Position numbers and translations under genes: made by a program
From: a virus
Direction: 5' to 3' (one strand)
DNA length: 64,000 nt
Virus record (IMG/VR): IMGVR_UViG_3300012662_000001
Coordinates: 1 to 64,000 of that record
The notes under the pieces: generated by a model
What the model was told of the DNA's origin: nothing
The model's database searches: none
Seen by the model: only the letters and a program-made list of their open reading frames with translations
Shown here: positions 6,632 through 54,672 of the stretch, one piece after another
How the letters are laid out: each line of letters opens with the position of its first letter
How positions within the stretch are numbered: position 1 is the first letter of the stretch

Positions 6632-6663
6632 CCTTGGATATTCCAGAAGAATGACTATCTTTG
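6632..6663 (+). promoter_or_regulatory. promoter/operator cassette P1 (CCTTGGATATTCCAGAA, then TATCTTTG -7 box)
   Basis: CTTG(-33), 19-nt spacer containing TGGA-TAT-TCCA, then TAnnTTTG. Followed by the TAATCATTAAGG leader and ATG at 6690. Confidence 0.6.
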
Positions 6664-6689
6664 CAGTGTAATCATTAAGGAACAAGGTT

Positions 6690-6956
6690 ATGAAAGCACT
6701 CACAAATAGTCAAATGGCACTTCTTATTCAGGAAAAGGTTCAGAATAATTTCTGTGAAATTGGAAAGGATTTCACTTATTTTGACACTGATATTAGGAAG
6801 GAACGTAAGGACATTCTTTGTGAAGTGAATTTTGTATGGTGTGGCAATATTTGCAAAGTGGGTTTGAGATTATATAGTTTTGGTTGGATTGGTTATAGAG
6901 AACTAACTCACGCAGATAGAAAGAAAGTGGAGAAAATGGTTAGGGAAATTCAGTAG
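6690..6956 (+). CDS. hypothetical protein
   Basis: 88-codon ORF directly behind P1. Confidence 0.5.
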   Translation: MKALTNSQMALLIQEKVQNNFCEIGKDFTYFDTDIRKERKDILCEVNFVWCGNICKVGLRLYSFGWIGYRELTHADRKKVEKMVREIQ

Positions 6957-6996
6957 AAAACACGTTTAATTATTAACAAATTCATAACAACGAATT

Positions 6997-8409
6997 ATGG
7001 CAAGTTTTAACAGAGACAGATTCAGGGCTACTCCCCTGTCAACGGTGAATTCAACTGTTACCGAGACAAAACAGTATGACACCTATTACGGTGGAAGCAG
7101 TGACTATGCACCGTTCTTTAAGAACGTGGATGGTGTGACCATTAAGAGGGTGCTTCCGGCACACGAGCCTGGAGACAGCCCCTATGTTCCTATGATGACC
7201 TCAATGCTTGAGTGTGAGGTTGAGGACAGAAAGGATGGTGTGGTTATCGGCAAGAAGATTGCCAAGAAGAAGATCTTCATTGCAACGCTTCACGCAGGAT
7301 CAAAGTACGACATCATTGATGAGTACATCAAGAGGGTCTATGCTCTTGCCGAGCAGTATCAGGACAAGGACGAGCGTAGTCGCTTCCTGAACCCTATTAC
7401 AGGGTATAGAATGGGTAAACAATGGGTGTCAGGTATTCGTCCACAGTTAGAGTATGTCTATTATGCTCTTATTAACGGACAGATTTATCGTGACAGTTTG
7501 AAACCGAAACAGATGGAAGCCCTTAACAAGGAATCCGCCGAGATGTGTGCCCAGGACGACACAGCCGCAATCGACATCTTTAGTGACCCTACAACTGGAT
7601 ACCCTATTCAGTGGTCACGAGAAAAGGACGAGAACGGTAAGACTGTTGAGGTGCTCAAGGCGTTGCCGCTTCCTCGCACAATGTCCTGGGATCAGTATTT
7701 CGAGAAGTATGCCGTTCCGGATAAGGTGCTGGAGGATCTTCTCAAACTTCCTTCACTGAAGAGTTTGTATGTCGGCTCCTATCGCAAGAAGGACTTCGAG
7801 TATGCGCTGGATGGCCTGAAGAGGTTTGATCAGAACAACAACTACAACATCTTCGCTGATGAGGACTATCTGGACTACATAGAGAAGGCCGAAACCGAGC
7901 TTTCCAAGAAGTGGGGTTTAGAGGAAGAAAGCAGTCCAGCTCCACAGCCAAGAGTAGCAGCATCTCAGGAGGAGACTCCATCGAAGCCGAAGCCTGTTGC
8001 AAAGAAGCCGACAGCTAAAAAGGCCACTTCGGAGGAGCCGACACTGGAACAGAAGTTGAAGGTCATCAACGAGGAGTTCATCAGACAGTATGGCAACGAG
8101 TATGAAGAAATCACCGCTGACGACTTGGGTGATGATCTTGATTCCACCTATGCTCTTGCTGTCAAGAGGGAGGATCTTGGCTACGACCTTGATCACGTTC
8201 CTGGATGGGACGCCAAGCCGGAGGTTTCATCAAAGCCGAAGCCAAAGGTAGCACCAAAGGTTGAGGAGACGAAGCCTGAATCTAAAGCAGCACCAGAGCC
8301 ACAGCCGCAGACCGCAGTCGCTCCACAGCCGACAGGCAGCACAACGGCACAATCCGCTCTTGAAAGAATCAAGGCTATGCGTGAGAGAGCCAAGCAGAAC
8401 AAGCAGTAA
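6997..8409 (+). CDS. hypothetical protein with Pro/Lys/Glu-rich low-complexity C-terminal half
   Basis: 470-codon ORF; terminator follows. Sits in the replication/recombination module, but no diagnostic motif was seen. Confidence 0.55.
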   Translation: MASFNRDRFRATPLSTVNSTVTETKQYDTYYGGSSDYAPFFKNVDGVTIKRVLPAHEPGDSPYVPMMTSMLECEVEDRKDGVVIGKKIAKKKIFIATLHAGSKYDIIDEYIKRVYALAEQYQDKDERSRFLNPITGYRMGKQWVSGIRPQLEYVYYALINGQIYRDSLKPKQMEALNKESAEMCAQDDTAAIDIFSDPTTGYPIQWSREKDENGKTVEVLKALPLPRTMSWDQYFEKYAVPDKVLEDLLKLPSLKSLYVGSYRKKDFEYALDGLKRFDQNNNYNIFADEDYLDYIEKAETELSKKWGLEEESSPAPQPRVAASQEETPSKPKPVAKKPTAKKATSEEPTLEQKLKVINEEFIRQYGNEYEEITADDLGDDLDSTYALAVKREDLGYDLDHVPGWDAKPEVSSKPKPKVAPKVEETKPESKAAPEPQPQTAVAPQPTGSTTAQSALERIKAMRERAKQNKQ

Positions 8410-8428
8410 CGAAGTGATGATATGATTG

Positions 8429-8459: not shown

Positions 8460-8467
8460 CAATTCTT

Positions 8468-9493
8468 ATGAAACAACCTTTAGCGATAATTAGCACCGAT
8501 TGGCACATTAAGGCTGACAACAAGGAATCCATTTTGAACATTGCGAAGCAGGAGATTCAGTTGGCTCAAAATCGTGGTGTGGACACGATTATATGGCTTG
8601 GAGATATGTTTGACAGCAGAACAAGTCAGAGCCAGGAACTTCTCACTCTTATGGATAGCATCCTGAATCTGTACTATCTGGCAGGACTGACCATACACTG
8701 CATTCCTGGGAATCACGACAAGACGGACTATGGCGATAATAGGAGTTTCCTGACGGTGTTCAAGTATCATCCTAACTTTCATCTTCACGAGACGCCTGAT
8801 ATGGTGGACTTTGGTGTTGTGAAGTTCTGGTTTATGCCGTTCTATAGGCAGGATGCCTATCTGGAAAGATTTCAGATGTGTATGCCACTTGGCAGGTGTG
8901 TTTTGTTCAGTCACACGGCTATCCAAGGTTCAATTAATAACGACGGCAGCAAGGTGGAGTCACCTATTAATGCTTCACTGTTTGAGGGCTTTGAAAAGGT
9001 CTTTCTTGGACACTATCATAATAGGCAGCAGCCAGCGAGGAACATTTTTCACTTACCGAGTGTTCAACAGAACAACTTTGGAGAGGATGAGGATAAGGGT
9101 TTTACCGTTTTGTATGATGATTTGTCATTTGAATCCGTAAGGTCGGTTTTTAAGCCGTACAGAGAAATTGTGGTTGATGCACGGACGGTTACATCAGAAG
9201 AGCTTGCGGAACTTTCTAAATCGTCCGTTGAAGGGGTGAATTTGCGGCTTACGTTCACAGGAGATCAACAGGCTGTGAAGAAGATTGATCGCAAGAAGTT
9301 TTCAGCGGTTGGTATCAGTGTTCAGGTCAAGTATGATGACATTGACGTTGAGGATGCTGATGAGCCGCACGGCATTACGGTTCTGGACGGTTCAAGCATT
9401 GGCGAGCGGTTCGAGAACTTCTGCAAGGAAAAGGGTTATGACTATGTAAAGGGATATAAACTATTAAAGGAAATAATGGGATGGCAGGAATAG
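8468..9493 (+). CDS. sbcD: SbcD/Mre11-family nuclease (calcineurin-like phosphoesterase)
   Basis: ISTDWH, GDMFD, GNHDK and GHYH motifs in the canonical order. ATG at 8468 chosen because the upstream TTG lies inside the terminator. Confidence 0.8.
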   Translation: MKQPLAIISTDWHIKADNKESILNIAKQEIQLAQNRGVDTIIWLGDMFDSRTSQSQELLTLMDSILNLYYLAGLTIHCIPGNHDKTDYGDNRSFLTVFKYHPNFHLHETPDMVDFGVVKFWFMPFYRQDAYLERFQMCMPLGRCVLFSHTAIQGSINNDGSKVESPINASLFEGFEKVFLGHYHNRQQPARNIFHLPSVQQNNFGEDEDKGFTVLYDDLSFESVRSVFKPYREIVVDARTVTSEELAELSKSSVEGVNLRLTFTGDQQAVKKIDRKKFSAVGISVQVKYDDIDVEDADEPHGITVLDGSSIGERFENFCKEKGYDYVKGYKLLKEIMGWQE

Positions 9494-10443: not shown

Positions 10444-10447
10444 ACTT

Positions 10448-15387: not shown

Positions 15388-15616
15388 CGAAAAGGATATA
15401 TTGAAGATCTGTGAAACAGCAGGTTGGAAAGGTGGCAAGCTGATTTACGGTGGGTTCGCTGACGGCAAGTATTACGTTTCCTACGGAGCGGAGAGTGACG
15501 GTGCTGAACTTGCGTGTGTGGGTGCTCCTATAATTCTTGTCGTGGAGAACGGCAGGTGTAGAACAGCCACTGACAAGGAATGGGTTTACTTTTACGAAAA
15601 TTTTGTGAAAGATTAA
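15380..15616 (+). CDS. hypothetical small protein (immunity-like position)
   Basis: 78-codon ORF overlapping the end of the preceding gene. Confidence 0.4.
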   Translation: MIDEKDILKICETAGWKGGKLIYGGFADGKYYVSYGAESDGAELACVGAPIILVVENGRCRTATDKEWVYFYENFVKD

Positions 15617-15623
15617 GGATTGT

Positions 15624-15656
15624 TCCTTGGATTATCAGGATGAATGATTATATTTG
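15624..15656 (+). promoter_or_regulatory. promoter/operator cassette P2
   Basis: TCCTTGGATTATCAGGA, then TATATTTG; 19-nt spacer. Confidence 0.55.
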
Positions 15657-15684
15657 CATAGTGAAAATTAAAAATGATTTCGTT

Positions 15685-16137
15685 ATGATTAAGATTGTCA
15701 CAAAATCTCAGGATCGTTTTCGTCAGGCTGCTGAAATAGCAGTTCAGGCGCATCGGGGTCAAGTTGACAAGAATGGTGTTCCGTACATCTGTCATCCTAT
15801 TGCCGTTGCTCAGAAGTGTCCATATTATACAGCCAAGTGTGTGGCTATGCTTCACGACGTGCTGGAGGATACGGAGTTTACCTCAGAGGACTTGCTTGCT
15901 ATGGATGTTGATCCATATATCGTTGAATGTGTAGAAAAGTTGACACACGATTCAAAGGTTCCATATCTGGACTACATTCAAAGCATAATTGACACACGAG
16001 ACACAAATATCATCAGCATAAAGTATGCTGATCTGTGTGACAATCTTGATCCGACGAGGGGTGGCTTGAACAAGGAGAAGTTATCTCTGTATAGTAAGGC
16101 CAGAAGAATGATGGAGGAAGCCTTATGTCTTGTGTAG
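15685..16137 (+). CDS. small HD-domain (p)ppGpp pyrophosphohydrolase (SpoT/MESH1-like)
   Basis: AHRGQVDKNGVPYICHPIAVA...MLHDVLEDT...VEKLTHD matches the RelA/SpoT hydrolase-domain signature. ATG at 15685 chosen because P2 lies inside the longer ORF. Confidence 0.7.
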   Translation: MIKIVTKSQDRFRQAAEIAVQAHRGQVDKNGVPYICHPIAVAQKCPYYTAKCVAMLHDVLEDTEFTSEDLLAMDVDPYIVECVEKLTHDSKVPYLDYIQSIIDTRDTNIISIKYADLCDNLDPTRGGLNKEKLSLYSKARRMMEEALCLV

Positions 16138-18047
16138 AACTAAGAAATGAAATCCTCCGTCTAAATTCCCTGTATAGGCAGGGCAAGCCGGAGGTTAGTG
16201 ATGTTGAATATGACGCACTCGTGGAACAGTTGAAAGCGATGTCTCCTGATGATGACTTCTTTAGGTCAGGCGTTGCTGAAAAGGCGACTGACAGAATGCA
16301 GAAACTTCCTCTTCCTATGTTCTCTCTGGAGAAAATAAAGACGTTTAAGGAGTTTTTTGTGTGGGTCACGAGAATGGTCAAGGTTGGGTGTGAAAATCTT
16401 GTTATAACGCCTAAATATGACGGAATAAGTCTTCTTGTCAGTGAACTGTCACAGGCGGCCTGGACGAGGGGTGACGGTGTGCAGGGTCAACGTAGTGACG
16501 CACATTTTGCACGAATGAAAAATGGTGAGGACAGAGAACCTGTGTTTGAGTACACTTGGGGTGAGGCAATATGTTCCAGAGACGACTTTGAAAAGGTCAA
16601 GGGTGAATATAAGAATGCTCGCAATATGGTTGCAGGGCTGTTCAACTCCCCTATGGGAGCCAATACGGAGCAGATAGGAGCTGTGACATTTGTGAGGTAT
16701 GGCCTTGATTCTGATGAGAACAAGTCTGTGCAGCTTACTTATATGGAGAAACAGTATCTGTATGTTACTCCATTCAAGATGATTAAAGCAAAGGACATTC
16801 TATCCTATGATGAGAGTAGTATTCTGGATATGTTGAACACACTTTATAGGTTATGGAAACAGACCTACCAGATAGACGGTTTGGTTATTGAAGTGGATGA
16901 GAGCGGTGTTCGCAAGACACTGGGACGCAAGCCAAACGGAAATCCTGACTATGCCGTTGCGTTCAAGCGTGAGGAGTGGCTTCAATCCTACACCACAGTG
17001 GTGGAGAGGGTTGAATGGAATGTTAGCAAGGACGGTTGTCTATGTCCAGTGATATGTGTAAGGCCTGTGGAGATGGAGAGTGCCACCGTGTCCAGAGTGA
17101 CAGGTTATAATGCTCAATATATTCTGGAGAACAATATAGCGAGCGGTTCCACGATAGACATCATTCGCAGCGGTGACGTTATTCCAAAGCATATCAGAAC
17201 ACTTGGTTATTTGGAAAAGACCTGTTTACAGGAATTCCCTACCGTGTGTCCGTGTTGTGGCAAGCCTATTCAGTGGGACTCCACTCACACCGAGCTCGTG
17301 TGTGTGAATGAGAATTGTAGGCAGCAGGTCATTTCTCGTATGGTGTATTTCTTTAGGACGATGGGCTGTGAGGGCTTTGATGAGCCTATTGTGCGTCGCC
17401 TATATGACGCAGGAATGGACAGTGTCCAGGTTGCTGTGGCAAACAAGTCCACCGTATTTATGTACATACTTGGAGAGAATAAAGGTCTGGCGGTGTACAA
17501 TGAGATTCAGAGGAGAGTGCTTCACACGAAGAATTCCGTTGCACGACTTATGACAGCCTTTAATGTGTTTGGCGGTGCTCTTGCTGAGAAGACTGCACAG
17601 AACATCATAGACGGCAGTGAAGCGGTTCAGTATCTACTGGACGTGGGTGAGCCGATTGATGATAATGACATTCTGGCGGTGGTTCGTGAGGAGTTATACT
17701 CCATCTTTGGAGTGGGTGAGGTTACGGCTGACACGTTTATTGCAGGTATGGACAGGTTCCTGAGGATGAAGTATATGTATCCTCACTATGTCTACAGACC
17801 GCAGAGGGTGATTGCTGATGACTGTATGCACGTCTGTATGACAGGCTTTCGGAGCAGGGAACTGGAGGAGGAACTTGTAAGGCAGGGACACGAGGTTCTG
17901 AGCGGTGTCACGGCCAAGTGTACGGTTCTTGTAGTGGCTGATCTGAACTCGACAAGCAGCAAGATGCAGAAAGCTCAGAAGATGGGGATACGTATTGTGG
18001 ATAGAAAGACATTTGAAAATGAAATATACGGCAAGGAGAATAAATAG
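16125..18047 (+). CDS. ligA: NAD-dependent DNA ligase
   Basis: N-terminal SDVEYDALVEQL, adenylation motif TPKYDGISL (KxDG), zinc finger CPCCG...CVNENC, C-terminal BRCT-like segment. Confidence 0.85.
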   Translation: MSCVELRNEILRLNSLYRQGKPEVSDVEYDALVEQLKAMSPDDDFFRSGVAEKATDRMQKLPLPMFSLEKIKTFKEFFVWVTRMVKVGCENLVITPKYDGISLLVSELSQAAWTRGDGVQGQRSDAHFARMKNGEDREPVFEYTWGEAICSRDDFEKVKGEYKNARNMVAGLFNSPMGANTEQIGAVTFVRYGLDSDENKSVQLTYMEKQYLYVTPFKMIKAKDILSYDESSILDMLNTLYRLWKQTYQIDGLVIEVDESGVRKTLGRKPNGNPDYAVAFKREEWLQSYTTVVERVEWNVSKDGCLCPVICVRPVEMESATVSRVTGYNAQYILENNIASGSTIDIIRSGDVIPKHIRTLGYLEKTCLQEFPTVCPCCGKPIQWDSTHTELVCVNENCRQQVISRMVYFFRTMGCEGFDEPIVRRLYDAGMDSVQVAVANKSTVFMYILGENKGLAVYNEIQRRVLHTKNSVARLMTAFNVFGGALAEKTAQNIIDGSEAVQYLLDVGEPIDDNDILAVVREELYSIFGVGEVTADTFIAGMDRFLRMKYMYPHYVYRPQRVIADDCMHVCMTGFRSRELEEELVRQGHEVLSGVTAKCTVLVVADLNSTSSKMQKAQKMGIRIVDRKTFENEIYGKENK

Positions 18048-30856: not shown

Positions 30857-30895
30857 GCAGCGGTCAGGACGTGAGTTCCGACCGTTGCTATTTTG
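30857..30895 (+). terminator. rho-independent terminator
   Basis: AGCAGCGGTC...GACCGTTGCT followed by ATTTTG. Confidence 0.6.
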
Positions 30896-30912
30896 TGAAA
30901 ATTCCGGAATGA

Positions 30913-30946
30913 TTCTTGGATATTCCAGGACGATTATGCAACTTTG
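30913..30946 (+). promoter_or_regulatory. promoter/operator cassette P3
   Basis: TTCTTGGATATTCCAGGA, then CAACTTTG. Confidence 0.55.
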
Positions 30947-30972
30947 CATCTGTAATTAAAACACACCGAACA

Positions 30973-32705: not shown

Positions 32706-33242
32706 ATGAACTTCTATGAAGCGGCAATACAGGCGGTCTGCACCGCCTATGAGATAACGCCCGAGACGCTGAAAGGCGAATGTCGGGATGAACGAATAGT
32801 GGAAGCGAGAAAGTGGTACTGTCTGCTGACCTCTCCACGACCTCTGGTGCAGTCCGGACGTCACATAAATCGTGATCACGCCACCGTACTGCATCATCGC
32901 AGGGAGATGCGTGACACTCTGGGGCTTTATTCCATCTACAGAGAGCGATGGCTTGTTATGAAGAAGCTCTTTGACAGAATATTGATGGAGGGGCGACTGA
33001 ATGAGTGTTCTGTGGGTGTGGTTGAATATAGGAGTCAGTGGAAGTCCTATCGGGATCTGCTGTCAGCCGCCGAGAGAGCGCGACGTAAACTGGAGGAGAT
33101 GTCCACGTCCGTCGCAGGTGAGCCGTGCGTGGTGTGTGAGAACGGTGACGGTGAGTTCCACGTGATAAGGGTTAAGAACAGACTTGCCGAGCCGCTGCAT
33201 CTGGAGTGTATGCTGAACATTATAAAAGAAAGAAACAAGTAA
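32706..33242 (+). CDS. protein with DnaA domain IV-like HTH (Bac_DnaA_C-like) N-terminal domain
   Basis: RDERIVEARKWYCLLTS...SGRHINRDHATVLHHRREM resembles the DnaA C-terminal DNA-binding signature (...R..a.yl...G..f.rDHtTV.ha). Confidence 0.5.
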   Translation: MNFYEAAIQAVCTAYEITPETLKGECRDERIVEARKWYCLLTSPRPLVQSGRHINRDHATVLHHRREMRDTLGLYSIYRERWLVMKKLFDRILMEGRLNECSVGVVEYRSQWKSYRDLLSAAERARRKLEEMSTSVAGEPCVVCENGDGEFHVIRVKNRLAEPLHLECMLNIIKERNK

Positions 33243-33715: not shown

Positions 33716-33762
33716 AGGCATACAGAGAATCCGGAGAATGATCCTGACCCTGTATGCCTTTT
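33716..33762 (+). terminator. 10-bp stem hairpin followed by a T-tract
   Basis: AGGCATACAG...CTGTATGCCT then TTT. Confidence 0.5.
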
Positions 33763-34422
33763 CGTGTGAACTCCGAAGGATGTTCACACCTGGAACGTTC
33801 GAACAGAACGTTCCCCAACTTCCTGATACTCAGGACACCCTCCTATTTCTATGATAAGCATTTCTTATAATTGATGATAATCCTTCCTTATATTGAGCAT
33901 ACAGACAGGGGGCTGTATGGAGGGGTCGGCTTGGGTGGGCACAGAAGGGATTATAGGGGTTGGAGGTGGTCGGTTTAGATGGAGGGGTTCTGGGTATTTA
34001 GAGCCGTGCGGAAACCTCCGTTCCTAAATCCCTTTCGCTCACGTCAGGGTTGTTTTCGAGAGAAATTGAACGATGATAGGGATGTCTGAGGTGGGTGATA
34101 TCCTATACAGTGGTGCAGTAAGGCAAACTCCGGGAATTTCGGTACTTAACGGAAGCTCATCGGGACAGGCGGATGCCGAGATTTTGTGAAAAATAGGGTG
34201 TGAAAATGACGTGAAAAACATAATCGACTGATAATGAGTGACCAATTTCAAATGTAAAGTGGGTGATAACAAAATCCCAGAGGGTATTAAAACGAAATTA
34301 AGGTAAAATCCCGAAATTCCGTAAAATGTAAAGCGGTTTACAGACGTCATTCCTATAACTCCCCTCAGGTATCCCGAGTTATGATGATTAAAATTGTAAG
34401 TTGGTGAAATTTCGTGGAAATT

Positions 34423-34455
34423 TCATTGGATATTCCAGAATATATGCCAACTTTG
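34423..34455 (+). promoter_or_regulatory. promoter/operator cassette P4
   Basis: TCATTGGATATTCCAGAA, then CAACTTTG (19-nt spacer). Confidence 0.55.
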
Positions 34456-34513
34456 CCCCATAACTACTAAAATCACCGACATCGGTGATAATGTTTGCTT
34501 ATAATAGAAACTT

Positions 34514-34696: not shown

Positions 34697-34738
34697 TGAA
34701 AACTTATAATTAGAACTCCTGTATAGAAAGTCTCCTAT

Positions 34739-34873
34739 ATGGAGCAGGGTTCGTCAGCCGTTCACGTCACGACCTATGAGGGCAGACTGACACGGAGTGA
34801 GGTCGTGGAATTTCTGGGTCTAAACAGACCTGATGTCGTGTGGTACGAGGTCAATCTCGTGGGCATAAAGTAA
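34739..34873 (+). CDS. possible 44-aa HTH (excisionase/AlpA-like) protein, below the ORF-track cutoff
   Basis: MEQGSSAVHVTTYEGRLTRSEVVEFLGLNRPDVVWYEVNLVGIK; terminator hairpin follows at 34883-34910. Confidence 0.3.
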   Translation: MEQGSSAVHVTTYEGRLTRSEVVEFLGLNRPDVVWYEVNLVGIK

Positions 34874-34882
34874 AACTGATGG

Positions 34883-34910
34883 ATGGAGGACAGTGAAGTC
34901 CTCCATTTAT
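34883..34910 (+). terminator. hairpin terminator
   Basis: ATGGAGGAC-agtgaa-GTCCTCCAT followed by TTAT. Confidence 0.55.
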
Positions 34911-34929
34911 CATATATGATAAATGAAAA

Positions 34930-35163
34930 ATGGACGAAGAGAAATACTATTGTGCAAACTGTAGATTCTGGGAAGCAGGAGAATTGTGGCAGTCTACTCC
35001 TATAAATATGGAGAGAAGGATTCCAACGACTGTCATCGCACAGGGAACGTGTCACGTCACAGGCAGACCCTATGGACGAATGAATTATATGCCTATATGC
35101 AGACGATTTGAACGAGGATTATATGAAAATCCAGGAATGATTTCACGGAATTTCCAGAAATAG
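34930..35163 (+). CDS. hypothetical Cys-rich small protein
   Basis: YYCANCRFW...C..C pattern. Confidence 0.4.
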   Translation: MDEEKYYCANCRFWEAGELWQSTPINMERRIPTTVIAQGTCHVTGRPYGRMNYMPICRRFERGLYENPGMISRNFQK

Positions 35164-35196
35164 TCTTGGAAGTTTCCAGAAATAGCCCCAACTTTG
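35163..35196 (+). promoter_or_regulatory. promoter/operator cassette P5 (preceded by a tandem half-copy at 35140-35160)
   Basis: GTCTTGGAAGTTTCCAGAAATAG, then CAACTTTG. GGAATTTCCAGAAATAG lies immediately upstream. Confidence 0.5.
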
Positions 35197-35259
35197 CATC
35201 GTTGGTTCAGTTGAGTGCTGCCAACAGGGTTGAAAGTTTAACATCTAAATAATTTCGTT

Positions 35260-35763
35260 ATGAACACAGCAATCATTCTTCCGGACGTCACATTCTCAAT
35301 GAGAGAGCACATCCTCGCCAAGGACAAGACGGCAATGAAGTATGTCAACAGGACACAGATTCAGGCAGAAATCAACCTCCTACTTGGAAACATTCAAAAG
35401 GCAGGTGTGAACATCGTTCCTCCACAGAAGGAGGTGAAGTCCAAGACTGACCTTATGGACGTGTACGGCTGGCTCTACAAGGAATGTGAAAAGTACAATG
35501 CTGAGGTTCTGACCGAGCGTCAGCGCAAGGTCGAGCAGGAATCATCGGAGCAGGTGGCTGCACCCAATGGACACAAGCACAAGGCCGCACGTCTCAAGGA
35601 CGCCAGCGACAGGCTCCAGAGATACAGTGACGAGCTGAAGCAGCGTAAGGCAGGTGACACTATGGGGCTGGACGCCAGAGGTCAGAAGCACCGCATCGCA
35701 AGTCTAAAGCGCAAAATCGCTCGTGCTGAAGCAAGTCTGAAGAAACTTCAGGAAATTTCCTAA
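35260..35763 (+). CDS. hypothetical protein (basic, coiled-coil C-terminus)
   Basis: 167-codon ORF. Confidence 0.5.
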   Translation: MNTAIILPDVTFSMREHILAKDKTAMKYVNRTQIQAEINLLLGNIQKAGVNIVPPQKEVKSKTDLMDVYGWLYKECEKYNAEVLTERQRKVEQESSEQVAAPNGHKHKAARLKDASDRLQRYSDELKQRKAGDTMGLDARGQKHRIASLKRKIARAEASLKKLQEIS

Positions 35764-35771
35764 TCAAGCCG

Positions 35772-35801
35772 TAGGAAATCCAGGAAATCGTACTATCTTT
35801 G
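35772..35801 (+). promoter_or_regulatory. promoter/operator cassette P6 (degenerate -33)
   Basis: TAGGAAATCCAGGAA, then TATCTTTG, then the TAATCATTAAATCAC leader. Confidence 0.45.
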
Positions 35802-35828
35802 CATCGTAATCATTAAATCACACACGCT

Positions 35829-39693: not shown

Positions 39694-39821
39694 CTTTCCA
39701 GGGTCTTAAATAGTAGGAAATAGTATAAGAAAAAGAGAAATAGGGCTCCTGTCGGAGCTTCTATCTTTTAGAGAATCTCATACGAAATTTATGAAATTTC
39801 ATAAAGAAATCCTATATCATA

Positions 39822-39854
39822 TCTTGGATATTCTAAGAAATCACCCCAACTTTG
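39822..39854 (+). promoter_or_regulatory. promoter/operator cassette P7
   Basis: TCTTGGATATTCTAAGAA, then CAACTTTG, then the TAATCATTAAACATCAC leader. Confidence 0.55.
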
Positions 39855-39882
39855 CAGGCGTAATCATTAAACATCACATATT

Positions 39883-40233
39883 ATGAAACAGATTGACACT
39901 ATGAACATCACGACCCCTAAATGGCACATAGAAGAGCTTACGGGCTATAAGCCTGAGACGACGTTCTGGCAGGATTTCTCCGTCGTTGAGAAGATGAACG
40001 GCCTTAATGGCGTTCAGGAGACGTTCAACAGAGCGTTCAAGGAGTGGTCAGACCACTATAGATACCTCACCGAGCTTGTTCTCGTGCTCAACTGGAAGTG
40101 CTGGGACTGGTATGATCAGGGTGATGAGGATATGTCTATGCTCTACCAGAACCTCTTCTATCAGGCAAGGGACTATGCTCTGGACAACCTCAAGGACGAA
40201 GAACTTTCCTATTTCGTGAAAACTACGGATTAG
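39883..40233 (+). CDS. hypothetical protein
   Basis: 116-codon ORF behind P7. Confidence 0.5.
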   Translation: MKQIDTMNITTPKWHIEELTGYKPETTFWQDFSVVEKMNGLNGVQETFNRAFKEWSDHYRYLTELVLVLNWKCWDWYDQGDEDMSMLYQNLFYQARDYALDNLKDEELSYFVKTTD

Positions 40234-40266
40234 TCCTTGGATATTCCAGAAATATGACTACCTTTG
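40234..40266 (+). promoter_or_regulatory. promoter/operator cassette P8 (closest to consensus)
   Basis: TCCTTGGATATTCCAGAA, 19-nt spacer, TACCTTTG, then the TAATCATTAAATCAC leader. Confidence 0.6.
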
Positions 40267-40295
40267 TGGCCGTTAATCATTAAATCACTTACGTT

Positions 40296-41786
40296 ATGGG
40301 ATTCACACCGAGCAAGTATCAGCAGCGCATCTATGATTTCATAGAGCAGGGCACAGGCAACGCAGTCATCAACGCAGTCGCAGGAAGCGGCAAGACAACA
40401 ACCCTAATCAGTCTCCTGGAACGTGTTTCGGCCACGAGCAGGGTTCTCTTTCTGGCCTTTAATAAGAGCATCGTGGAGGAACTGAAGATAAAGACCTCCC
40501 GATTCAGCAATGTGGACGTTAGAACACTGCACTCACTCGGATGCTCGGCTCTCCGTAAGCAGCTCTCCATAGGAGACATCAACAGCAGCAAGTATCGTCA
40601 ATACGTCACGGAGCAGCTGAAGTCAGGAGCATACGCCCCCACACGAGAGCTGTCTCTGAAGGAGAAGTCTGAGTATAAGAGCAACGTGCTGGATCTCATC
40701 GACCTCGCACGTGTCAATCTGTGTCAGTCCGCTCAGGAGGTTGCCGCTGTGGCCGAGAAGCACGGTCTGTTCCTGCACGACAACGAGATACAGCTCGCCC
40801 TGAATGCAATTGTCTGGGGTCGCAGCGAAAGCGGCCTTTCCACCATCGACTTCACGGATATGATATATCTTCCTTGCTACTTCAGCGAGGTGCGGTTCTT
40901 CAAGTATGACCTCGTCCTAATAGACGAGTGTCAGGACTTGAATGCGGCTCAGAGAACTTTATTCCTCAAGACCATTAAGCGCAACGGACGCTTCGTGGCC
41001 GTGGGGGATCCTCGTCAGGCGATATACGGCTTCGCTGGAGCGGACGTGGAGTCATTCAACCTCCTCAAGTCCCTCCCTAACACGGTGGAGCTTCCGCTGT
41101 CAGTGTGCTATCGCTGTGACAGGGAGATTATCAGGAAAGCCCAGACGGAGGTTCCACAGATAGAGTGGCGTGAGAACGCTCCTGACGGCACGGTGAACAG
41201 TGACGCCAAAATTGCCGACGTCAAGGACGGTGATATGGTGCTGTGTCGTCTGTCAGCACCGCTCGTGGCTCTCTGCATCAGGTGGATAGGTGATGGCGTC
41301 AAGGCCTACATCAAGGGTCGTGACATCGGCACCAACCTCGTCAATATGCTCCAGAAGACCAAGCGTGTCCGCATCAAGGACGCTCTCAATGTTCTCCGCA
41401 AGGAATTGGCTCGTGTTCAGGGGGAGATACAGAGGACGTGCGGTATGTCTCCTGAGGAGGCCGTCCAGCACACCGCCTATGTCCTCTATGAGGATAAGAT
41501 TAAGGCGATAGAGGTCATCGCCGAGGGACTGACCAAGGTTGAGGAGGTGTGTGATCGCATCAACGCAATCTTCAGTGACGAGAGCAAGCAGGGCATCTGT
41601 CTTTCGACCGTTCACAAGTCCAAGGGACTGGAGAGTGACAGAGTGTTCATCGTCTGTCCTGACAAGTTCCTACTGAAGCGGTCAATGCGAATTCCGTGGA
41701 TGGCGGAGCAGGAGCACAACCTCGTCTATGTGGCCTACACAAGAGCGAAGCACTATCTCGGCTTCGTGACGGACTTTAAGATATAA
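40296..41786 (+). CDS. UvrD/PcrA-like SF1 helicase (paralog 2)
   Basis: VAGSGKTTT, IDECQDLN, VGDPRQAIYGFAGA, TVHKSKGLESDRVF, VAYTRAKHYL. Confidence 0.85.
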   Translation: MGFTPSKYQQRIYDFIEQGTGNAVINAVAGSGKTTTLISLLERVSATSRVLFLAFNKSIVEELKIKTSRFSNVDVRTLHSLGCSALRKQLSIGDINSSKYRQYVTEQLKSGAYAPTRELSLKEKSEYKSNVLDLIDLARVNLCQSAQEVAAVAEKHGLFLHDNEIQLALNAIVWGRSESGLSTIDFTDMIYLPCYFSEVRFFKYDLVLIDECQDLNAAQRTLFLKTIKRNGRFVAVGDPRQAIYGFAGADVESFNLLKSLPNTVELPLSVCYRCDREIIRKAQTEVPQIEWRENAPDGTVNSDAKIADVKDGDMVLCRLSAPLVALCIRWIGDGVKAYIKGRDIGTNLVNMLQKTKRVRIKDALNVLRKELARVQGEIQRTCGMSPEEAVQHTAYVLYEDKIKAIEVIAEGLTKVEEVCDRINAIFSDESKQGICLSTVHKSKGLESDRVFIVCPDKFLLKRSMRIPWMAEQEHNLVYVAYTRAKHYLGFVTDFKI

Positions 41787-41797
41787 TTTCCTGGATT

Positions 41798-41832
41798 GCT
41801 CCTTGGATATCCAAGGAGCAGCCTTATATTTG
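41798..41832 (+). promoter_or_regulatory. promoter/operator cassette P9 with a 24-bp perfect palindrome
   Basis: TGCTCCTTGGAT|ATCCAAGGAGCA (41798-41821), then TATATTTG (41825-41832). Confidence 0.6.
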
Positions 41833-41856
41833 CACACAGATTAAAACACACACGAT

Positions 41857-46477: not shown

Positions 46478-46509
46478 CCCGATCGCCTGTGACAGGTTAT
46501 CGGGTTTTT
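46478..46509 (+). terminator. rho-independent terminator
   Basis: CCCGAT..CCTGT-g-ACAGG..ATCGGG followed by TTTTTC. Confidence 0.7.
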
Positions 46510-46520
46510 CTTTATATTAA

Positions 46521-46554
46521 TCCTTGGATAATTCCAGACATTCCACTATATTTG
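46521..46554 (+). promoter_or_regulatory. promoter/operator cassette P10
   Basis: TCCTTGGATAATTCCAGA, then TATATTTG, then the TAATCATTAAATCAC leader. Confidence 0.6.
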
Positions 46555-46582
46555 CCGTATAATCATTAAATCACGTTACACT

Positions 46583-49869: not shown

Positions 49870-50823
49870 CTATAGTTGTGAAAATATGTGTTTCAGTAGA
49901 ATGCCAACGAAGTTCACGTCCCAGCCGTTGCCAGCTCTGTTCCAGAGTTGATTGGGTGTCAGTCCGGCATAGTCAAGTTCACCGTCTCTAAACCCCATAA
50001 ATCTGAATCGTTCATCAGCGGACATACGTCTGACAATTTCTCTTCCGTCACGTGGCGGCTCAACCACATAGAAAACGTTGTGTTCCTCCAGTATGGTTCC
50101 AGAGAGACCGTCCGTGCGAACCTTGCGATTGTAGAGGTCGAGATTGGCGGCTTCAGTGACCTGAAGCTGATTGCCGAGCCTGTACTTCTCTTTGATGTAC
50201 TGTATACGCTTATCACTAAGATACAGTGATGGGTCTGGGTGCTCGTCAAGAAGATCCTTGAAGCGCAGACTAGAAGGACACTTCGATGGAACAATACTGA
50301 ACCCCTCCGGAAGACCTCCAAGCCGTGCGAATATCCAGACACGTTCCCTGTTCTGCGGTATGCCGTAGTCCTTGCTGTTCATAAGGCCGTAGGCGATATC
50401 ACCATAGCCAAGCTCCTTGAATGCGTCTTTGATAAGGTTAAATGTCTCTTCAAACTTCCTGGATAGGAAGCCCTTGACATTCTCCAGAAGAACATACTTC
50501 GGCTTCTTAACGGAGCACACATAGATGATGTCAGCGAAAAGTGTGCCACGACCATAGCGGTCTCTTTCTCCTTCCTGATCACCTATGAGGCTGAACGGCT
50601 GACACGGAAAGCCGCCTGTGAACAGGTCAAAGTCAGGCAGCTCCTCTGGATTCAACTTGGTGATGTCACCGTAGTTCCTGATGTCAGGGAAGTTAGCGGC
50701 CAAAAGTTTGTTGGCATCCTTGTTGATGTCGGACTGACCCACTACCTTAAACGGTATTCCGGAGCGTCTTAGACCGAATGACGCTCCACCGTATCCTGCG
50801 AATGTTTCAAATACTCGTAGCAT
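49870..50823 (-). CDS. dcm: DNA (cytosine-5)-methyltransferase (second copy, different family member)
   Basis: FETFAGYGGASFG (I), GGFPCQPFS (IV), ENVKG (VI), QNRERVW (VIII), GNGWDV (X). Confidence 0.9.
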   Translation of the reverse strand: MLRVFETFAGYGGASFGLRRSGIPFKVVGQSDINKDANKLLAANFPDIRNYGDITKLNPEELPDFDLFTGGFPCQPFSLIGDQEGERDRYGRGTLFADIIYVCSVKKPKYVLLENVKGFLSRKFEETFNLIKDAFKELGYGDIAYGLMNSKDYGIPQNRERVWIFARLGGLPEGFSIVPSKCPSSLRFKDLLDEHPDPSLYLSDKRIQYIKEKYRLGNQLQVTEAANLDLYNRKVRTDGLSGTILEEHNVFYVVEPPRDGREIVRRMSADERFRFMGFRDGELDYAGLTPNQLWNRAGNGWDVNFVGILLKHIFSQL

Positions 50824-51098: not shown

Positions 51099-51153
51099 AA
51101 TGCAAAGCAAAATAAAAACCAACAAACAAAGGCAACCAACCTGATTGCAAGTG

Positions 51154-51186
51154 CAAAGGTAGTCATCTTTCTTGGAAATCCAAGGA
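51154..51186 (-). promoter_or_regulatory. promoter/operator cassette P13 on the minus strand
   Basis: minus strand reads TCCTTGGATTTCCAAGAAA, 19 nt, then TACCTTTG. Confidence 0.55.
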
Positions 51187-51211
51187 TTTTATCAAGAATT
51201 TTCTAAAAAAT

Positions 51212-52003
51212 CTATTCGTCCAAAGATGGGTTTTTATTACTCATACAGCCGTTATCTGTAACCTTAAATCTTATGCCAATAACACGAGCCCTTTTCTTGG
51301 CAATCACCTTTTTAAGAATATATTCATACTCGAATGTAAGCCTACATCCTCTATCATCAATCTCCTTTTTACATTCCTTAATATAGTCCGTAACAAAGCG
51401 ATTAGTGTCTATCTGTTCTGGACAGTCCAGCCGCTTGCGAAGTTCCTGCAAGTCCGCATCCCAAACTCCAGCACCATATTTAGGATGCTTGCGGTTAAGG
51501 TTTTCTGACAAATAAAGGTACAAATTCATAGATGTAGGCCGTTGAAGAGCCATAAAAGATTGAACACAAAAAGAAGCATAACCTGTTTTCTTGGAAAAGT
51601 CCAACAACCATCTAAGAGAACGTGGTGGAATTCCCACCCAATATCTTCCATCCTTATTTAGAAGAGTGTAGAATAGAGGAAATGTAGCCTTTCTACCTTG
51701 TTCATCCACTTCATCTATGACGTTAATCTGCGTCATCTTTTCAAGTAGAGATCTTACACTGCCATTATGAGACATTACATATTTAGGTTCGATCTCTACT
51801 TCAAATTCAGAAAGGCTGTTTAGTGGAAAAATTTGTTTTAACCTTTCTGTGTCAAGAGTTTTCCAGTCCACTTCTTCATTTCCTGGAATAAATTCCTGCA
51901 AGGCTTCCACTACAACAGCCCAACAGCGTTTCTGTCGAGCAGAACTGTATTTTGTCACATCTCTTGTTGCACGTTTCGTTGTGCGTAAAATTCTTTTGCT
52001 CAT
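51212..52003 (-). CDS. putative replication initiator (Rep), paralog 2
   Basis: Paralog of 38634..39503 along its whole length; iteron array directly upstream. ATG at 52003 is downstream of the -7 box. Confidence 0.5.
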   Translation of the reverse strand: MSKRILRTTKRATRDVTKYSSARQKRCWAVVVEALQEFIPGNEEVDWKTLDTERLKQIFPLNSLSEFEVEIEPKYVMSHNGSVRSLLEKMTQINVIDEVDEQGRKATFPLFYTLLNKDGRYWVGIPPRSLRWLLDFSKKTGYASFCVQSFMALQRPTSMNLYLYLSENLNRKHPKYGAGVWDADLQELRKRLDCPEQIDTNRFVTDYIKECKKEIDDRGCRLTFEYEYILKKVIAKKRARVIGIRFKVTDNGCMSNKNPSLDE

Positions 52004-52146: not shown

Positions 52147-52943
52147 TTTCTGTAAAATTCTGTAAATGAAATAGTTATCGGGAAAAGAGGCCTCCTGTAA
52201 TAGTAGGGGTAATAGATATTGGGTAATAGTATGATTGTTTATTGATAGTATTACTCCTAAAGTCGTAATACATATCACAATCATACTATTACCTGAAATA
52301 GAAGGGAAATTAAGAAAAGGGAACCGAAACGTCACATCTGAAAATGGAGGGGCTTCGAAAGGGGACTCCTCCCTTACGGTCGGAGGTCTTGTCTTCCCCT
52401 TTCTACGCCCAGGAGAGGGTCGACAGAGCGACCCTGTTTCCTTATAGGAGAATCCTGTATGAAATGCCGTTATACAAACAGTCGTGTCAAGGCCGCAAAG
52501 AATTCAACATTCTTCCCTTCACACGCTTGAGAACGGATAGCATAGATGGGCAGTGCAGTTCCCTATGAAAGTCGTTTATGGAGCAGACATAAAAAGACAC
52601 ATAGCGAAAAGACGGTTGGTTCGATTCCACCTCCGTGGCCTAATTATTTCGGCCTTGTGCTGTAACGTGTTTTGTATTTGATTTGTGATTAGGTGAATTT
52701 GTCAGTTTTTAGACGATTTAGGCGATGTTTGATGTTGGTTCAGTGTAGTTGTCAGGTTTGTGATTAGTTTGTTCCTATATTGCGTAGAATTTTAGTTTGG
52801 ATATCATATTTACGAAAAATTGAGTTTTATCAGTAGTTTTAGAGTTTACAGAATTTTTCTTTTTCGTGTCATTATGCAGGTCGTCCACCGTCTGGGAAGT
52901 AAGGTTCTCCACGGTGGGCATTTTTATGAAAAATCGTGAAAAG

Positions 52944-52977
52944 TTCATTGGAAATTTCAGAAAGGCCACTATATTTG
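52944..52977 (+). promoter_or_regulatory. promoter/operator cassette P11 (a second TATATTTG lies at 53025-53032)
   Basis: TTCATTGGAAATTTCAGAAA, 19 nt, then TATATTTG. Confidence 0.5.
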
Positions 52978-53059
52978 TAGTGTGATAAGACAGAGTGATA
53001 GTTCTTTTAATAGGCTTGTTCTGCCTATATTTGTATCACGAAATTTTAATTCTTTAGAT

Positions 53060-54622
53060 ATGGCAGAAAAGAAATTGGTTCCAGTCGAGAGGTTCAGGGA
53101 GGTTGCCCTGAACAACGGCTATGAAGTGTTTGATGAGACACAGGTGGCGGACTATGCCAAGGACGCTATGATGAAGTCTCAGGCAGGTGTTCTTTCAAAG
53201 GAGGACAAGGATGAGTTCGCCGTGGAGATGGCGGGACTTATGAAGGCTATCTGTGCGAATGGGGACGGCAGTCAGTGCACTCTCTACTATCGCAAGCCGC
53301 TTGTTGACTGGAAAGTTGACGGCAACGGTGTCGTGATGAAGGGGATCGCAGGAACGTACACTGACACCCCTGAGAACAGAAAGTTGAATCGTGTGGGTCA
53401 GGCTTATGTTCCAAGTTCTGATGTTATTAAGTCTATCTATGGTGCTGGAAAGGAGGACATCGAGGAGAATAAGGTTGATGCTGAGATGGCAGAACAGGCC
53501 TCTTTCATTAGAAAGTCCTGTGCCGTTGTGGCCGCTGATGCGGAGAGAAGACTTGCCCTTGGTGAGATTGATGAAAAGCTCTGCAAGTCAGTGAAGACCG
53601 AGGTTGGTATGTATCTGACTTCGTGGGGTGACACGCTTGATGAGTGCTGCGACGTTGTGAAGTCTGAGGACTTGGCTGACGTGCGTGAGGACTTGGCTGA
53701 CGCCAAGGCGGCATTTGTTGACATTGTCAAGGCCGCTCACGGTCGCTATGCTGACACCGCCAAGAATAGAAGACTGCATCGTGTTGGTCAGGAGTACGGC
53801 AAGGCGGCTCAGGAGAAGGACAAAGATGAGAAGAAGCAGGGTGCGACTGATGGTGTATCAGGTGGGAAGCCGTCTCGCAATGGTGATTCCGTGAAACGTG
53901 ATCTTTCCATTCTTGAGGAGAACAAGGATAGGATTGTTGAGAAGTACGGCCAGGAAGCCTATGATAGGAAAGTTGAAACCCTAAAGAAGGAGGGTGATGA
54001 CTACGAGCAGAAGGAGACCGTGAAGCAACTCAAGGAGCGTGCTGACAAGCAGGACGCTGAGGAGGAGGAACGCAAAAAGGCTGATAAGAGAGCCAAGCGT
54101 CAGGAGAAGCGCAGAGCACGTCACGCAGCCAAGCGTGAGGCCGCTAAAAAGGCCAAGGAGGAAGTCGAAGTCAAGGCAAAGGCTGAAGTGGAGAAACAGC
54201 ATCCTGAGGAGAAAGAACAACCTGAAAAGAATGCGAATAGCATTGAGTTGACTTCTAAGGGCATTAAGGACTATGTTGACAAGAATAGCAGTACCCCTGA
54301 TGCTCGTATGCAAGCGATGGCCGCAGCCTATAAGGCACTCAAGGATAGTGGCAAGAGTAAGAAAGTTGACACGTTTGTTAAGGAGGTGTCAACTGGAAGT
54401 CCAAAAGTTGATATGGTTACACGGAAGTATGTGGAAGCTACTATGGCTGGAGCCACACACGAGGAAGCCAAGGCGTTTGCTGAAAAGGAGTTCAACTTAC
54501 TTGAGCACGGTATTCAGATGGCTCAGACTGCCATAGAGGACAATCTTCCTCAAGGTATGGCACAGCATTTGATGAAGACAGCCTATGCCGTCTTTGATAA
54601 GGCGAAGTTTACAAAGAAGTAG
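53060..54622 (+). CDS. NR(K/R)L.RVGQ-motif protein (two motif copies), Lys/Glu-rich; candidate internal virion/ejected protein
   Basis: GTYTDTPENRKLNRVGQAY (53351-53407) and GRYADTAKNRRLHRVGQEYG (53741-53800). The C-terminal 120 aa are paralogous to 54695..55876. ATG at 53060 is downstream of the promoters. Confidence 0.55.
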   Translation: MAEKKLVPVERFREVALNNGYEVFDETQVADYAKDAMMKSQAGVLSKEDKDEFAVEMAGLMKAICANGDGSQCTLYYRKPLVDWKVDGNGVVMKGIAGTYTDTPENRKLNRVGQAYVPSSDVIKSIYGAGKEDIEENKVDAEMAEQASFIRKSCAVVAADAERRLALGEIDEKLCKSVKTEVGMYLTSWGDTLDECCDVVKSEDLADVREDLADAKAAFVDIVKAAHGRYADTAKNRRLHRVGQEYGKAAQEKDKDEKKQGATDGVSGGKPSRNGDSVKRDLSILEENKDRIVEKYGQEAYDRKVETLKKEGDDYEQKETVKQLKERADKQDAEEEERKKADKRAKRQEKRRARHAAKREAAKKAKEEVEVKAKAEVEKQHPEEKEQPEKNANSIELTSKGIKDYVDKNSSTPDARMQAMAAAYKALKDSGKSKKVDTFVKEVSTGSPKVDMVTRKYVEATMAGATHEEAKAFAEKEFNLLEHGIQMAQTAIEDNLPQGMAQHLMKTAYAVFDKAKFTKK

Positions 54623-54634
54623 AAAAATTCACAG

Positions 54635-54672
54635 AGCACTCCTTGGAATCTCCTGAGGAGTGCTTATATTTG
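54635..54672 (+). promoter_or_regulatory. promoter/operator cassette P12 embedded in a 9-bp-stem inverted repeat
   Basis: AGCACTCCTtggaatctcctgAGGAGTGCT, then TATATTTG. Confidence 0.55.

Follow-up and report, generated by a model that had tools for sequence, protein, structure and literature searches.

A repeated putative promoter cassette in an uncultured gut phage has a spacer resembling that of Bacteroidota tRNA promoters

The virus record IMGVR_UViG_3300012662_000001, which comes from an uncultured gut phage, is 106,557 bp long and has direct terminal repeats; the region analyzed here, referred to as the window, encompasses its bases 1-64000. Both the window and the rest of the genome include copies of a sequence of about 80 nucleotides (nt), named the cassette, of which a total of about 15 were found. 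With moderate confidence, we interpret the cassettes as strong promoters for the host RNA polymerase that are modelled on the promoters of stable RNAs and that also serve as recombination junctions. The conserved spacer between the -33 and -7 elements would mostly not be an operator; since it matches the spacer of the hosts' stable-RNA promoters, it is most likely an element of promoter strength.

In the proposed mechanism the cassette would be a self-contained strong-promoter module, read by the host RNA polymerase with its primary sigma factor and used by the phage some 15 times for early or middle non-structural operons. Its spacer would reproduce that of the hosts' stable-RNA, i.e. transfer RNA (tRNA), promoters, as a promoter element in fixed register to the -7 box that may act through a contact with RNA polymerase or through DNA shape and that was omitted from the textbook -33/-7 consensus. 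The module would have been present in the ancestor of a family of gut Bacteroidales phages of roughly 100 kb, in which each clade keeps its own version at orthologous operons.

Number, structure and position of the cassettes

A profile hidden Markov model was made from the 13 sites listed in the initial annotation of the window, and nhmmer was used to compare it with the whole genome and with four relatives. All 13 listed positions carry the cassette, and the matches in the window are exactly these 13 places, with expectation values (E) from 1e-17 to 5e-7. Beyond the window the same search found a strong site on the plus strand at 102000-102081 (102032+) and a weak antisense copy on the minus strand at 67497-67418 (67447-). 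The sequence CTTGGATATTCCA, when up to two mismatches are allowed, occurs 8 times against 1.9 expected, a number that none of 100 shuffled sequences reached, and the 16-mer at up to three mismatches is found 14 times in the whole genome as compared to once for a reversed control. Altogether 64 sites were collected from five related genomes, about 50 of them from the four close relatives. There are 14-16 copies per genome, concentrated at 30-55 kb, a region of varying gene content. An exact 17-mer scan of IMG/VR returned only the four close relatives and chance matches inside genes, a BLAST search with the cassette against 50,697 cultured phage records gave nothing significant, and megablast with 8 kb of the window found no match.

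The cassettes in the window, with their nhmmer E values, are the following predicted promoters.

6604..6683, plus strand: cassette promoter (E 1.2e-17), TTG-19-TATCTTTG, start codon 26 nt after the box; upstream of an 88-amino-acid gene (6690-6956) and a 470-amino-acid gene
15596..15683, plus strand: cassette promoter (E 5.5e-12) upstream of the HD_4 and NAD ligase genes
30887..30970, plus strand: cassette promoter (E 1.4e-13) with a spacer of 20 and the box CAACTTTG; operon of a 104-amino-acid gene and the extracytoplasmic function (ECF) sigma gene, continuing to the DnaA-domain-IV-like gene
34397..34481, plus strand: cassette promoter (E 2.1e-13) of the small genes 34514-35163
35136..35222, plus strand: cassette promoter (E 4.4e-12) of a 167-amino-acid gene; upstream stop codon 3 nt before TTG; orthologous cassette in relatives G006 and G007
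35747..35818, plus strand: degenerate cassette TAGGAAATCCAGGAA (site 35772/35775; E 4.5e-7) with no TTGG and a 16-nt spacer; upstream of a 300-amino-acid LPD29/DnaJ-like gene
39794..39875, plus strand: cassette promoter (E 3.3e-9) of a 116-amino-acid gene; one partner of a cassette-to-cassette deletion in relative G004
40209..40295, plus strand: cassette promoter (E 4.5e-14) of the UvrD-type helicase gene
41771..41853, plus strand: cassette promoter (E 1e-13) with the core extended to a perfect 24-nt palindrome, TGCTCCTTGGATATCCAAGGAGCA; fold -21.4 kcal/mol, z = -6
46492..46579, plus strand: cassette promoter (E 3e-10) of a 92-amino-acid gene; orthologous cassette in G006 and G007
51130..51215, minus strand: cassette promoter (E 1.3e-14) of the C5 DNA methylase island
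52917..52999, plus strand: cassette promoter (E 7.2e-14) of a 520-amino-acid gene
54619..54694, plus strand: cassette promoter (E 4.5e-12) with a 9-bp stem (AGCACTCCT ... AGGAGTGCT) around the core; fold -20.7 kcal/mol, z = -6.7; 393-amino-acid gene upstream of the portal gene

From 5' to 3' the cassette consists of the upstream block GAAAATTCC-GGAAT, the sequence TCCTTGG that includes the TTG of the -33 element, the sequence ATATTC(C/A)AGAA, seven free nucleotides, a -7 box with the structure nAnnTTTGCA, and an A-rich leader. The consensus of the 64 sites is aATTTtaaGAAAATTCcTGGAaTAtTCCTTGGATATTCAAGAAaaatgaCTAtCTTTGCAttGTAATcAtTAAA, and the conserved leader sequence is GTAATCATTAAATCAC. The upstream block, which is A/T-rich and located at about -60 to -40, appears to be UP-element-like, and the spacer element T(T/C)C(A/C)AGAA is found exactly 11 nt upstream of the -7 box. 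Although the elements of the roughly 35-nt cassette first described are present, the conserved unit is longer, about 80 nt from about -60 to +25. The fit of its -33 and -7 elements to the consensus of the Bacteroidota primary sigma factor was borne out, as TTG is located 19-20 nt from the box at 14 of the 15 sites of the genome and the sites are intergenic. The box itself has the expected sequence TAnnTTTG at 9 of the 13 sites of the window, but at the remaining four it is CAACTTTG, in which the A and the TTTG are kept; the following base is C or T at all 13. Most start codons lie 22-36 nt after the -7 box. In eight cases the preceding gene ends 3-21 nt before TTG, and therefore the upstream block overlaps coding sequence. 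The leader of about 20-30 nt, A-rich and unstructured, seems suited to the translation without Shine-Dalgarno sequences of Bacteroidota.

According to Bayley 2000 and Vingadassalom 2005, as cited in PMC7366714, Bacteroidota promoters recognized by sigma-ABfr consist of TTTG at -33 and TAnnTTTG at -7, separated by 19-21 nt. The cassettes share with them the -7 box, the TTG at -33, the 19-20-nt spacing, the intergenic position and the short A-rich leader, and differ from them by the addition of three conserved blocks: the upstream block, the spacer element and the leader. When the genomes are analyzed one by one, the core holds 0.8-1.9 bits per position and the 7 nt before the -7 box about 0 bits. 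Since these neutral positions are randomized among the copies, the core is under constraint, and the position-specific conservation points to selection rather than to recent copying.

As had been suggested, the cassettes head one coherent set of non-structural genes, which includes accessory genes, the ECF sigma operon, the UvrD helicase gene, the genes for an HD-domain protein and a ligase, and the methylase island. Two cassette-headed genes lie upstream of the portal gene. Plain -7 boxes are found upstream of structural operons (56331, 61255, 69978, 83626 and 101022). Because of this division between plain boxes at structural operons and cassettes at accessory, sigma, DNA-metabolism and methylase genes, we infer that the cassettes constitute an early or middle class. 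At the late operons the -7 boxes are plain, and most lack a clear -33 element.

The spacer in host tRNA promoters and in related phages

To compare the cassette with host sequences, TTGGATATTCMAGAA-N6-9-TAnnTTTG was scanned in one genome per species of 185,579 prokaryote species, which gave 44 matches, 37 of them in Bacteroidota chromosomes. About 21 of the host matches correspond to one orthologous Chryseobacterium promoter, whose -7 box ends 11 nt before the tRNA-Ser(GGA) gene; one match is located 14 nt before a tRNA-Leu gene of Cryptobacteroides and, in a Bacteroides metagenome-assembled genome (MAG), one precedes a tRNA cluster by about 25 nt. The phage 15-mer is therefore found, in the same register to the -7 box, in tRNA promoters of Chryseobacterium, Bacteroides and Cryptobacteroides. 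As matches that were selected by the motif cannot show its conservation, 30 Chryseobacterium tRNA-Ser loci were taken by their tRNA sequence alone. Their promoters read GTGGAGAAATTTC ... AATAATTTG[G/C]nnATTC[C/A]A[G/T]AAAWTnnnCTATTTTTGCA; they keep the right half of the phage core, ATTC(C/A)A(G/T)AAA, and an upstream element of the GAGAAATTTC type, and the 3-4 nt after TTTG vary.

For Bacteroidales, 26 -7 boxes upstream of tRNA genes or clusters in three MAGs were compared with 47 other boxes. The consensus of the tRNA promoters was AAAAAtTTGG-nnnn-TtCaaAAAAA-nnnnn-TACCTTTGCA. The sequence TTC[AC] was found exactly 11 nt before the box in 10/26 tRNA boxes and in 5/47 others (Fisher p = 0.007), and the 6 nt after this position included a mean of 4.5 A and 2.1 A, respectively. 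One host tRNA-Lys promoter, AGAAAATTTCGCGTCAGAAAATTTGGATAATTCAAAAAAACTGACTAACTTTGCA, tracks the phage consensus over most of its length. In the phage cassettes T(T/C)CMAGAA is found within the 15 nt preceding the box, in the host register, and only 1 of the 34 non-cassette -7 boxes of the phage has the spacer element. Within a small host sample, consisting of three MAGs and one genus, the comparison indicates that tRNA promoters of Bacteroidales generally have TTCA and an A-run located 11 nt before the -7 box. Beyond the textbook consensus, TTC(A/C)A with an A-rich run exactly 11 nt upstream of TA(C/A)CTTTGCA was observed in the Bacteroidales MAGs and in about 30 Chryseobacterium species, often together with TTGG at -33 and an upstream A-tract or GAGAAATTTC element.

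Phage cassettes and host tRNA promoters are thus alike in having TTGG and, after 3-5 nt, TTC(A/C)A(A/G)AA(A) located exactly 11 nt before TA(C/A)CTTTGCA; in some host promoters the phage 15-mer is found without any difference, and some have an upstream element of the GAGAAATTTC type. On the other hand, the 3-5 nt after TTG(G) vary in the hosts and are fixed as GGATA in the phage clade, and the region directly upstream of -33 is mostly an A-tract in Bacteroidales hosts and GAAAATTCC-GGAAT in the phage clade.

A cassette of similar design is found in the cultured Bacteroides phage B124-14, which has five copies of its own (37968, 24522, 6405, 4193 and 2836) consisting of upstream GTTAAA repeats, TTG, TATTWAAAT, TCCT, TAnnTTTGCA and the leader GTCAAAAGGAAACAAATTACTAACA. 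It resembles the cassette described here in being present in multiple copies and in having upstream A/T elements, a -33 element, TT(T/C)A with an A-run 11 nt before the box, a -7 box and a conserved leader; it differs in that there are only 5 copies and no sequence similarity beyond this shared grammar. The B124-14 cassette may be the source of the promoter P_BfP1E6. This engineered phage promoter is described as including UP elements and a -7 box (10.1101/2025.03.18.644028). In E. coli the spacer sequence alone alters promoter strength up to 600-fold (PMC12641261) and the RNA polymerase core can read the spacer (PMC3173786). By analogy, the polymerase of Bacteroidota may read it as well.

A search with the portal protein led to 80 related loci, with identities from 95% down to 45%. 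The cassette profile and the enrichment of the 16-mer were limited to five genomes with portals at least 93% identical (G000, G002, G003, G004 and G009, the G000 clade), and in 16 other relatives, mostly complete, the 16-mer counts were the same as those of the control. Self-comparison and iterated profiles, however, identified sister clades (portal 70-73% identical) that carry their own version of the cassette, in 15 copies in G006 and 10 copies in G007. The profiles of the three clades cross-match weakly, and the module as a whole, leader included, exists in a separate version in each clade. The G006 and G007 cassettes precede orthologues of the sigma gene, of the genes at 35260, 41857, 46583, 54695 and 6997, and of the HD and ligase genes; the cassette-headed operons that are shared in this way comprise the sigma, 167-, 156-, 92-, 393- (upstream of portal) and 470-amino-acid, HD-domain and ligase genes. 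Since the sister-clade cassettes precede the same operons, the promoter class can be considered ancestral and positionally conserved.

According to the initial annotation, an operator would be refuted by a spacer motif that is not conserved in relatives whose -33 and -7 elements are. The information content of the spacer, defined as the 14 nt after TTG and corrected for sample size, is 11.3-13.7 bits in the G000 clade but only 7.0 bits in G006 and 4.7 bits in G007, while the upstream block (12-16 bits in the G000 clade and 20-23 bits in the sister clades), the -33 and -7 elements and the leader are kept, a result largely against an operator; as a caveat to this loss, G006 keeps TTCA in the same register. 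The G006 cassettes (e.g. 9244-9328 and 22308-22389) have as upstream block a GC-rich hairpin that varies in sequence and whose U-run, TTTCTTTG, at the same time forms the -33 element; such a cassette can be described as a putative compact terminator-promoter fusion.

Several observations weigh against cassettes modelled on stable-RNA promoters. The host genomes with the 15-mer have only 1-2 copies of it, as is the case for the reversed control, and the number of independent host matches, about 14, exceeds only a little what a rough estimate predicts by chance for promoters. The spacer of the hosts varies naturally, and the exact phage sequence corresponds to one of its variants rather than to its consensus. 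Host tRNA promoters do not conserve GGATA or the G of MAGAA; something clade-specific must constrain both in the phage clade. The spacer holds about twice as much information in the G000 clade as in the sister clades (11-14 and 5-7 bits), and its consensus is dyad-symmetric, with 7 of 9 pairs when centred between the T and the A at the junction of TTCCTTGGAT and ATTCMAGAA. Recognition by the host sigma-A polymerase, high strength, early timing and the mode of action of the spacer, finally, are derived from sequence.

Alternative explanations

The spacer was initially explained as the operator of a dimeric regulator, which would bind a strictly conserved inverted repeat, TGGA-N3-TCCA. This repeat is exact at only 4 of the 13 sites (6635, 30917, 34427 and 40238). 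In the position matrix a dyad is found centred between TTCCTTGGAT and ATTCAAGAA, together with a direct periodicity of 10-11 and 21-22 nt, and the TTG and CAA arms of the dyad are also accounted for by the -33 element and the host-type spacer element. An operator would occur independently of the promoter grammar and be absent where its regulator is absent; the core motif has 0 occurrences in the phage away from promoters or in another register, and the 15-mer is present in host tRNA promoters. Taken with the weaker conservation of the sister-clade spacers, these results leave an operator unsupported as the main explanation. A host regulon with many operator copies was also considered and rejected, as the 15-mer has only 1-2 copies per host genome, equal to the reversed control.

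An operator layer could nevertheless coexist with a promoter of the stable-RNA type, and we consider it unlikely that the clade-specific part of the spacer next to -33, CCTTGGATA (bottom strand TATCCAAGG), is the binding site of a phage regulator. The best candidate is the product of the following gene.

32706..33242, plus strand: orphan DnaA-domain-IV (helix-turn-helix) protein, 178 amino acids; Pfam Bac_DnaA_C PF08299, E 5.9e-10

Domain IV is located at the N-terminus of this protein. Its helix 5 reads RDHATVLH as compared to RDHTTVLH in E. coli DnaA and, with the list of base-contacting DnaA residues of PMC5043019 and an alignment to M. tuberculosis DnaA, it was found to keep the equivalents of E. 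coli R399 (invariant), R432, D433, H434, L438 and H439, with T435 changed to A. An AlphaFold (AF2) model had a mean predicted local distance difference test score of 74.5, above 90 for residues 1-70, and its top Foldseek match was 3pvp, the DNA-bound DNA-binding domain of DnaA (target-normalized template-modelling score 0.82, root-mean-square deviation 2.0 A), with 8btg, 1j1v and 1l8q as further matches. In the model the helix-turn-helix is followed by two long helices and a small beta domain of low confidence with a CxxC motif. The T435-to-A change might be an adaptation to a putative hypermodified thymidine of the phage.

The gene and the enrichment of the motif are present in exactly the same 5 of 21 related genomes, and the spacer holds 11-14 bits in that clade against 4.7-7.0 bits in the sister clades. 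In addition to the dyad symmetry of the core, the GGATA that adjoins the TTG of the -33 element gives a bottom strand of TATCCAAG, and TATCCA is common to this sequence and the DnaA box TTATCCACA. As the phage has no excess of canonical DnaA boxes (4 versus 4 in the control), the cassettes would be the only obvious targets of the protein on phage DNA, and a DnaA-like domain acting at promoters is known from GafA of the Rhodobacter gene transfer agent (PMC9638019). As the gene belongs to the cassette-driven sigma operon, the protein would feed back on all of the about 15 promoters; given the overlap of the site with -33, repression or shut-off is more likely than the alternative, a GafA-like activation together with the phage sigma factor. 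The similarity to DnaA and GafA consists of a stand-alone domain-IV fold with a base-contacting helix and of TATCCA on the bottom strand of the core (PMC5043019, PMC9638019). GafA has its DnaA-like domain beside a sigma-like domain and acts at promoters of a virus-derived element (PMC9638019), whereas the phage protein has neither an AAA+ nor a sigma-like domain.

The co-occurrence represents a single evolutionary event, since the five genomes form one clade, and the whole 8-kb block at 30-38 kb has the same pattern. Only 10 homologues of the protein were found among 5.8 billion proteins, all of them in phage contigs of the G000 clade, and none of the 10 provides an independent lineage for the co-occurrence of motif and protein. 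The clade-specific part of the spacer amounts to only about 3-6 bits, the bottom strand (A)TATCCAAG agrees with the DnaA box TTATCCACA (TTWTNCACA) at 6 of 9 positions, with differences at positions 8-9, and the overlap of the putative half-sites by 4 bp is uncommon for a dimer. The identical 15-mer serves as spacer in tRNA promoters of hosts that lack the protein, and the protein could instead target host DnaA boxes. Among the candidate regulators named in the initial annotation the DnaA-domain-IV protein fits best, and Pfam and PHROG scans of about 45 phage proteins recognized no other DNA-binding protein among the clade-specific genes. The ECF sigma factor, also named there, is an unlikely reader of the clade-specific motif, as it is present in sister clades without the motif and both the -7 and the -33 element correspond to the primary sigma factor. 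It is doubtful that a captured, stand-alone DnaA DNA-binding domain is a global transcription regulator that reads TATCCAAG at about 15 tRNA-like early promoters, that of its own operon included; if true, one small protein would switch a whole temporal class.

As to the proposed role of the cassettes in recombination, at least one of G002, G003 and G004 lacks the flanks of each of the sites 6634, 15627, 30916, 39824, 40237, 54643 and 51183 or has other DNA in their place, and the cassette at G004/42220 is a chimera of a 39824-type 5' half and a 40237-type leader, the 116-amino-acid gene between them having been lost. Because the copies are so alike, they would also be crossover points for gene gain, loss and replacement. 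Mobile promoter/terminator units at the borders of indels are known in T4-type phages as promoter early stem-loop (PeSL) cassettes (PMC2839356, PMC4122927). Both are repeated early-promoter modules in variable intergenic DNA, found at the edges of indels or replacements that distinguish close relatives, with a chimeric cassette at a deletion and a terminator-like hairpin in some copies. They differ in host phylum and promoter grammar, and the hairpin is optional in the G000 clade and found inside the spacer rather than upstream. The position of the cassettes at such borders, the chimera with its deleted gene, the clade-specific versions of the whole module including the leader and the like behavior of PeSLs would all be expected if concerted evolution alone, by homogenizing recombination, gene conversion or recent spread, had kept a functionless spacer sequence. 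We judge this quite improbable: conservation is position-specific, with a core that is kept in each genome and randomized sequence in parts of the upstream block and in the 7 nt that precede the -7 box, and an element in the same register is found in host tRNA promoters and in the unrelated phage B124-14.

It is highly improbable that the dyad is a hairpin acting as terminator or processing site for upstream read-through, or that the cassettes are the promoter class of the phage ECF sigma factor. In three to four orthologous groups the T-rich -7 box is indeed preceded by a strong extended hairpin (-18 to -21 kcal/mol, z -6 to -7.6), the stem of which changes compensatingly between genomes, and most G006 copies have GC hairpins whose U-run is the -33 element. 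However, folding is weak at most sites (-2 to -8 kcal/mol, z about 0), and a general hairpin or terminator role of the dyad was rejected since most of the 64 sites fold no better than shuffled sequences. The strong hairpins, at 41771-41853, 54619-54694 and in two groups in relatives, appear to be local terminators built on the promoter. With respect to the ECF sigma factor, its gene is downstream of a cassette in every clade. TAnnTTTG and the -33 TTG are, on the other hand, hallmarks of the primary sigma factor and stay constant while the phage sigma factor diverges to 30-41% identity, and the same promoters lie upstream of host tRNA genes. Homologues of the sigma factor, with 30-62% identity, are found in G002, G006, G007 and G008 and in all sister clades. 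It evolves fast, with 62% identity in a relative with 93% portal identity and 30-41% in sister clades. No promoter class assignable to it was found, and its gene is always behind a cassette promoter.

Individual cassettes and neighboring genes

The genes recognized near the cassettes by Pfam are listed below, together with the portal gene.

15688-18047, plus strand: HD_4-domain gene (15688-16137) followed by NAD ligase gene; Pfam HD_4 and DNA ligase domains
31291-31905, plus strand: ECF-type sigma factor gene; Pfam Sigma70_r2, Sigma70_r4_2 and Sigma70_ECF
40296-41786, plus strand: UvrD helicase gene; Pfam UvrD-helicase
49870-50823, minus strand: C5 DNA methylase gene; Pfam DNA_methylase
57072-58790: portal gene

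A glucosaminidase and a head protease were also recognized among the phage genes. The match of the HD_4 gene to the HD-domain family is weak; at the HD_4/ligase locus the relatives have one more gene and a second cassette. A scan of the window with Rfam matched no family, which includes the 393-nt stretch after the sigma operon (33646-34038), free of open reading frames and with G-rich repeats (GGGG, GGAGG).

Some cassettes have features of their own. The palindrome at 41771..41853 is a terminator-like hairpin directly upstream of the T-rich -7 box, and its flanks change compensatingly in G002; the stem at 54619..54694 is different in G002 and G003 and still paired. The leader of the 35166 cassette (35198-35222) is unlike the others: it includes a conserved hairpin, GTTGGTTCAGTTGAGTGCTGCCAAC, with orthologues at G002/15438, G003/9882 and G004/48879, and there are 63 nt from the -7 box to the start codon, so it may be a regulatory 5' untranslated region. 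The 520-amino-acid gene is preceded by tandem -7 boxes, one in the cassette (52970) and one plain (53026), 56 nt apart, and the two promoters may differ in timing. The weak minus-strand copy at 67418-67497 points antisense into the 3' end of a plus-strand gene (66600-67448) and is conserved, with unchanged relative orientation, in G003 and G004; it could be the promoter of an antisense RNA or a fossil inverted module.

If the cassettes are promoters of the stable-RNA type, a large family of abundant, as yet uncultured gut Bacteroidales phages would have placed its non-structural genes behind one portable module that imitates the strongest promoters of the host and doubles as a recombination joint for swapping genes in and out. 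Strong conservation and a roughly palindromic sequence of a promoter spacer are not on their own evidence of an operator. The spacer element may also bear on the carriage by the phage of its weak HD_4 gene, called a guanosine tetraphosphate (ppGpp) hydrolase in the initial annotation. More generally, the cassettes point to a Bacteroidota promoter element beyond the textbook consensus that two unrelated phages share with the tRNA promoters of Bacteroidales and Flavobacteriales, and which, should it contribute to promoter strength or growth-rate control, would be useful for the design of Bacteroides promoters.

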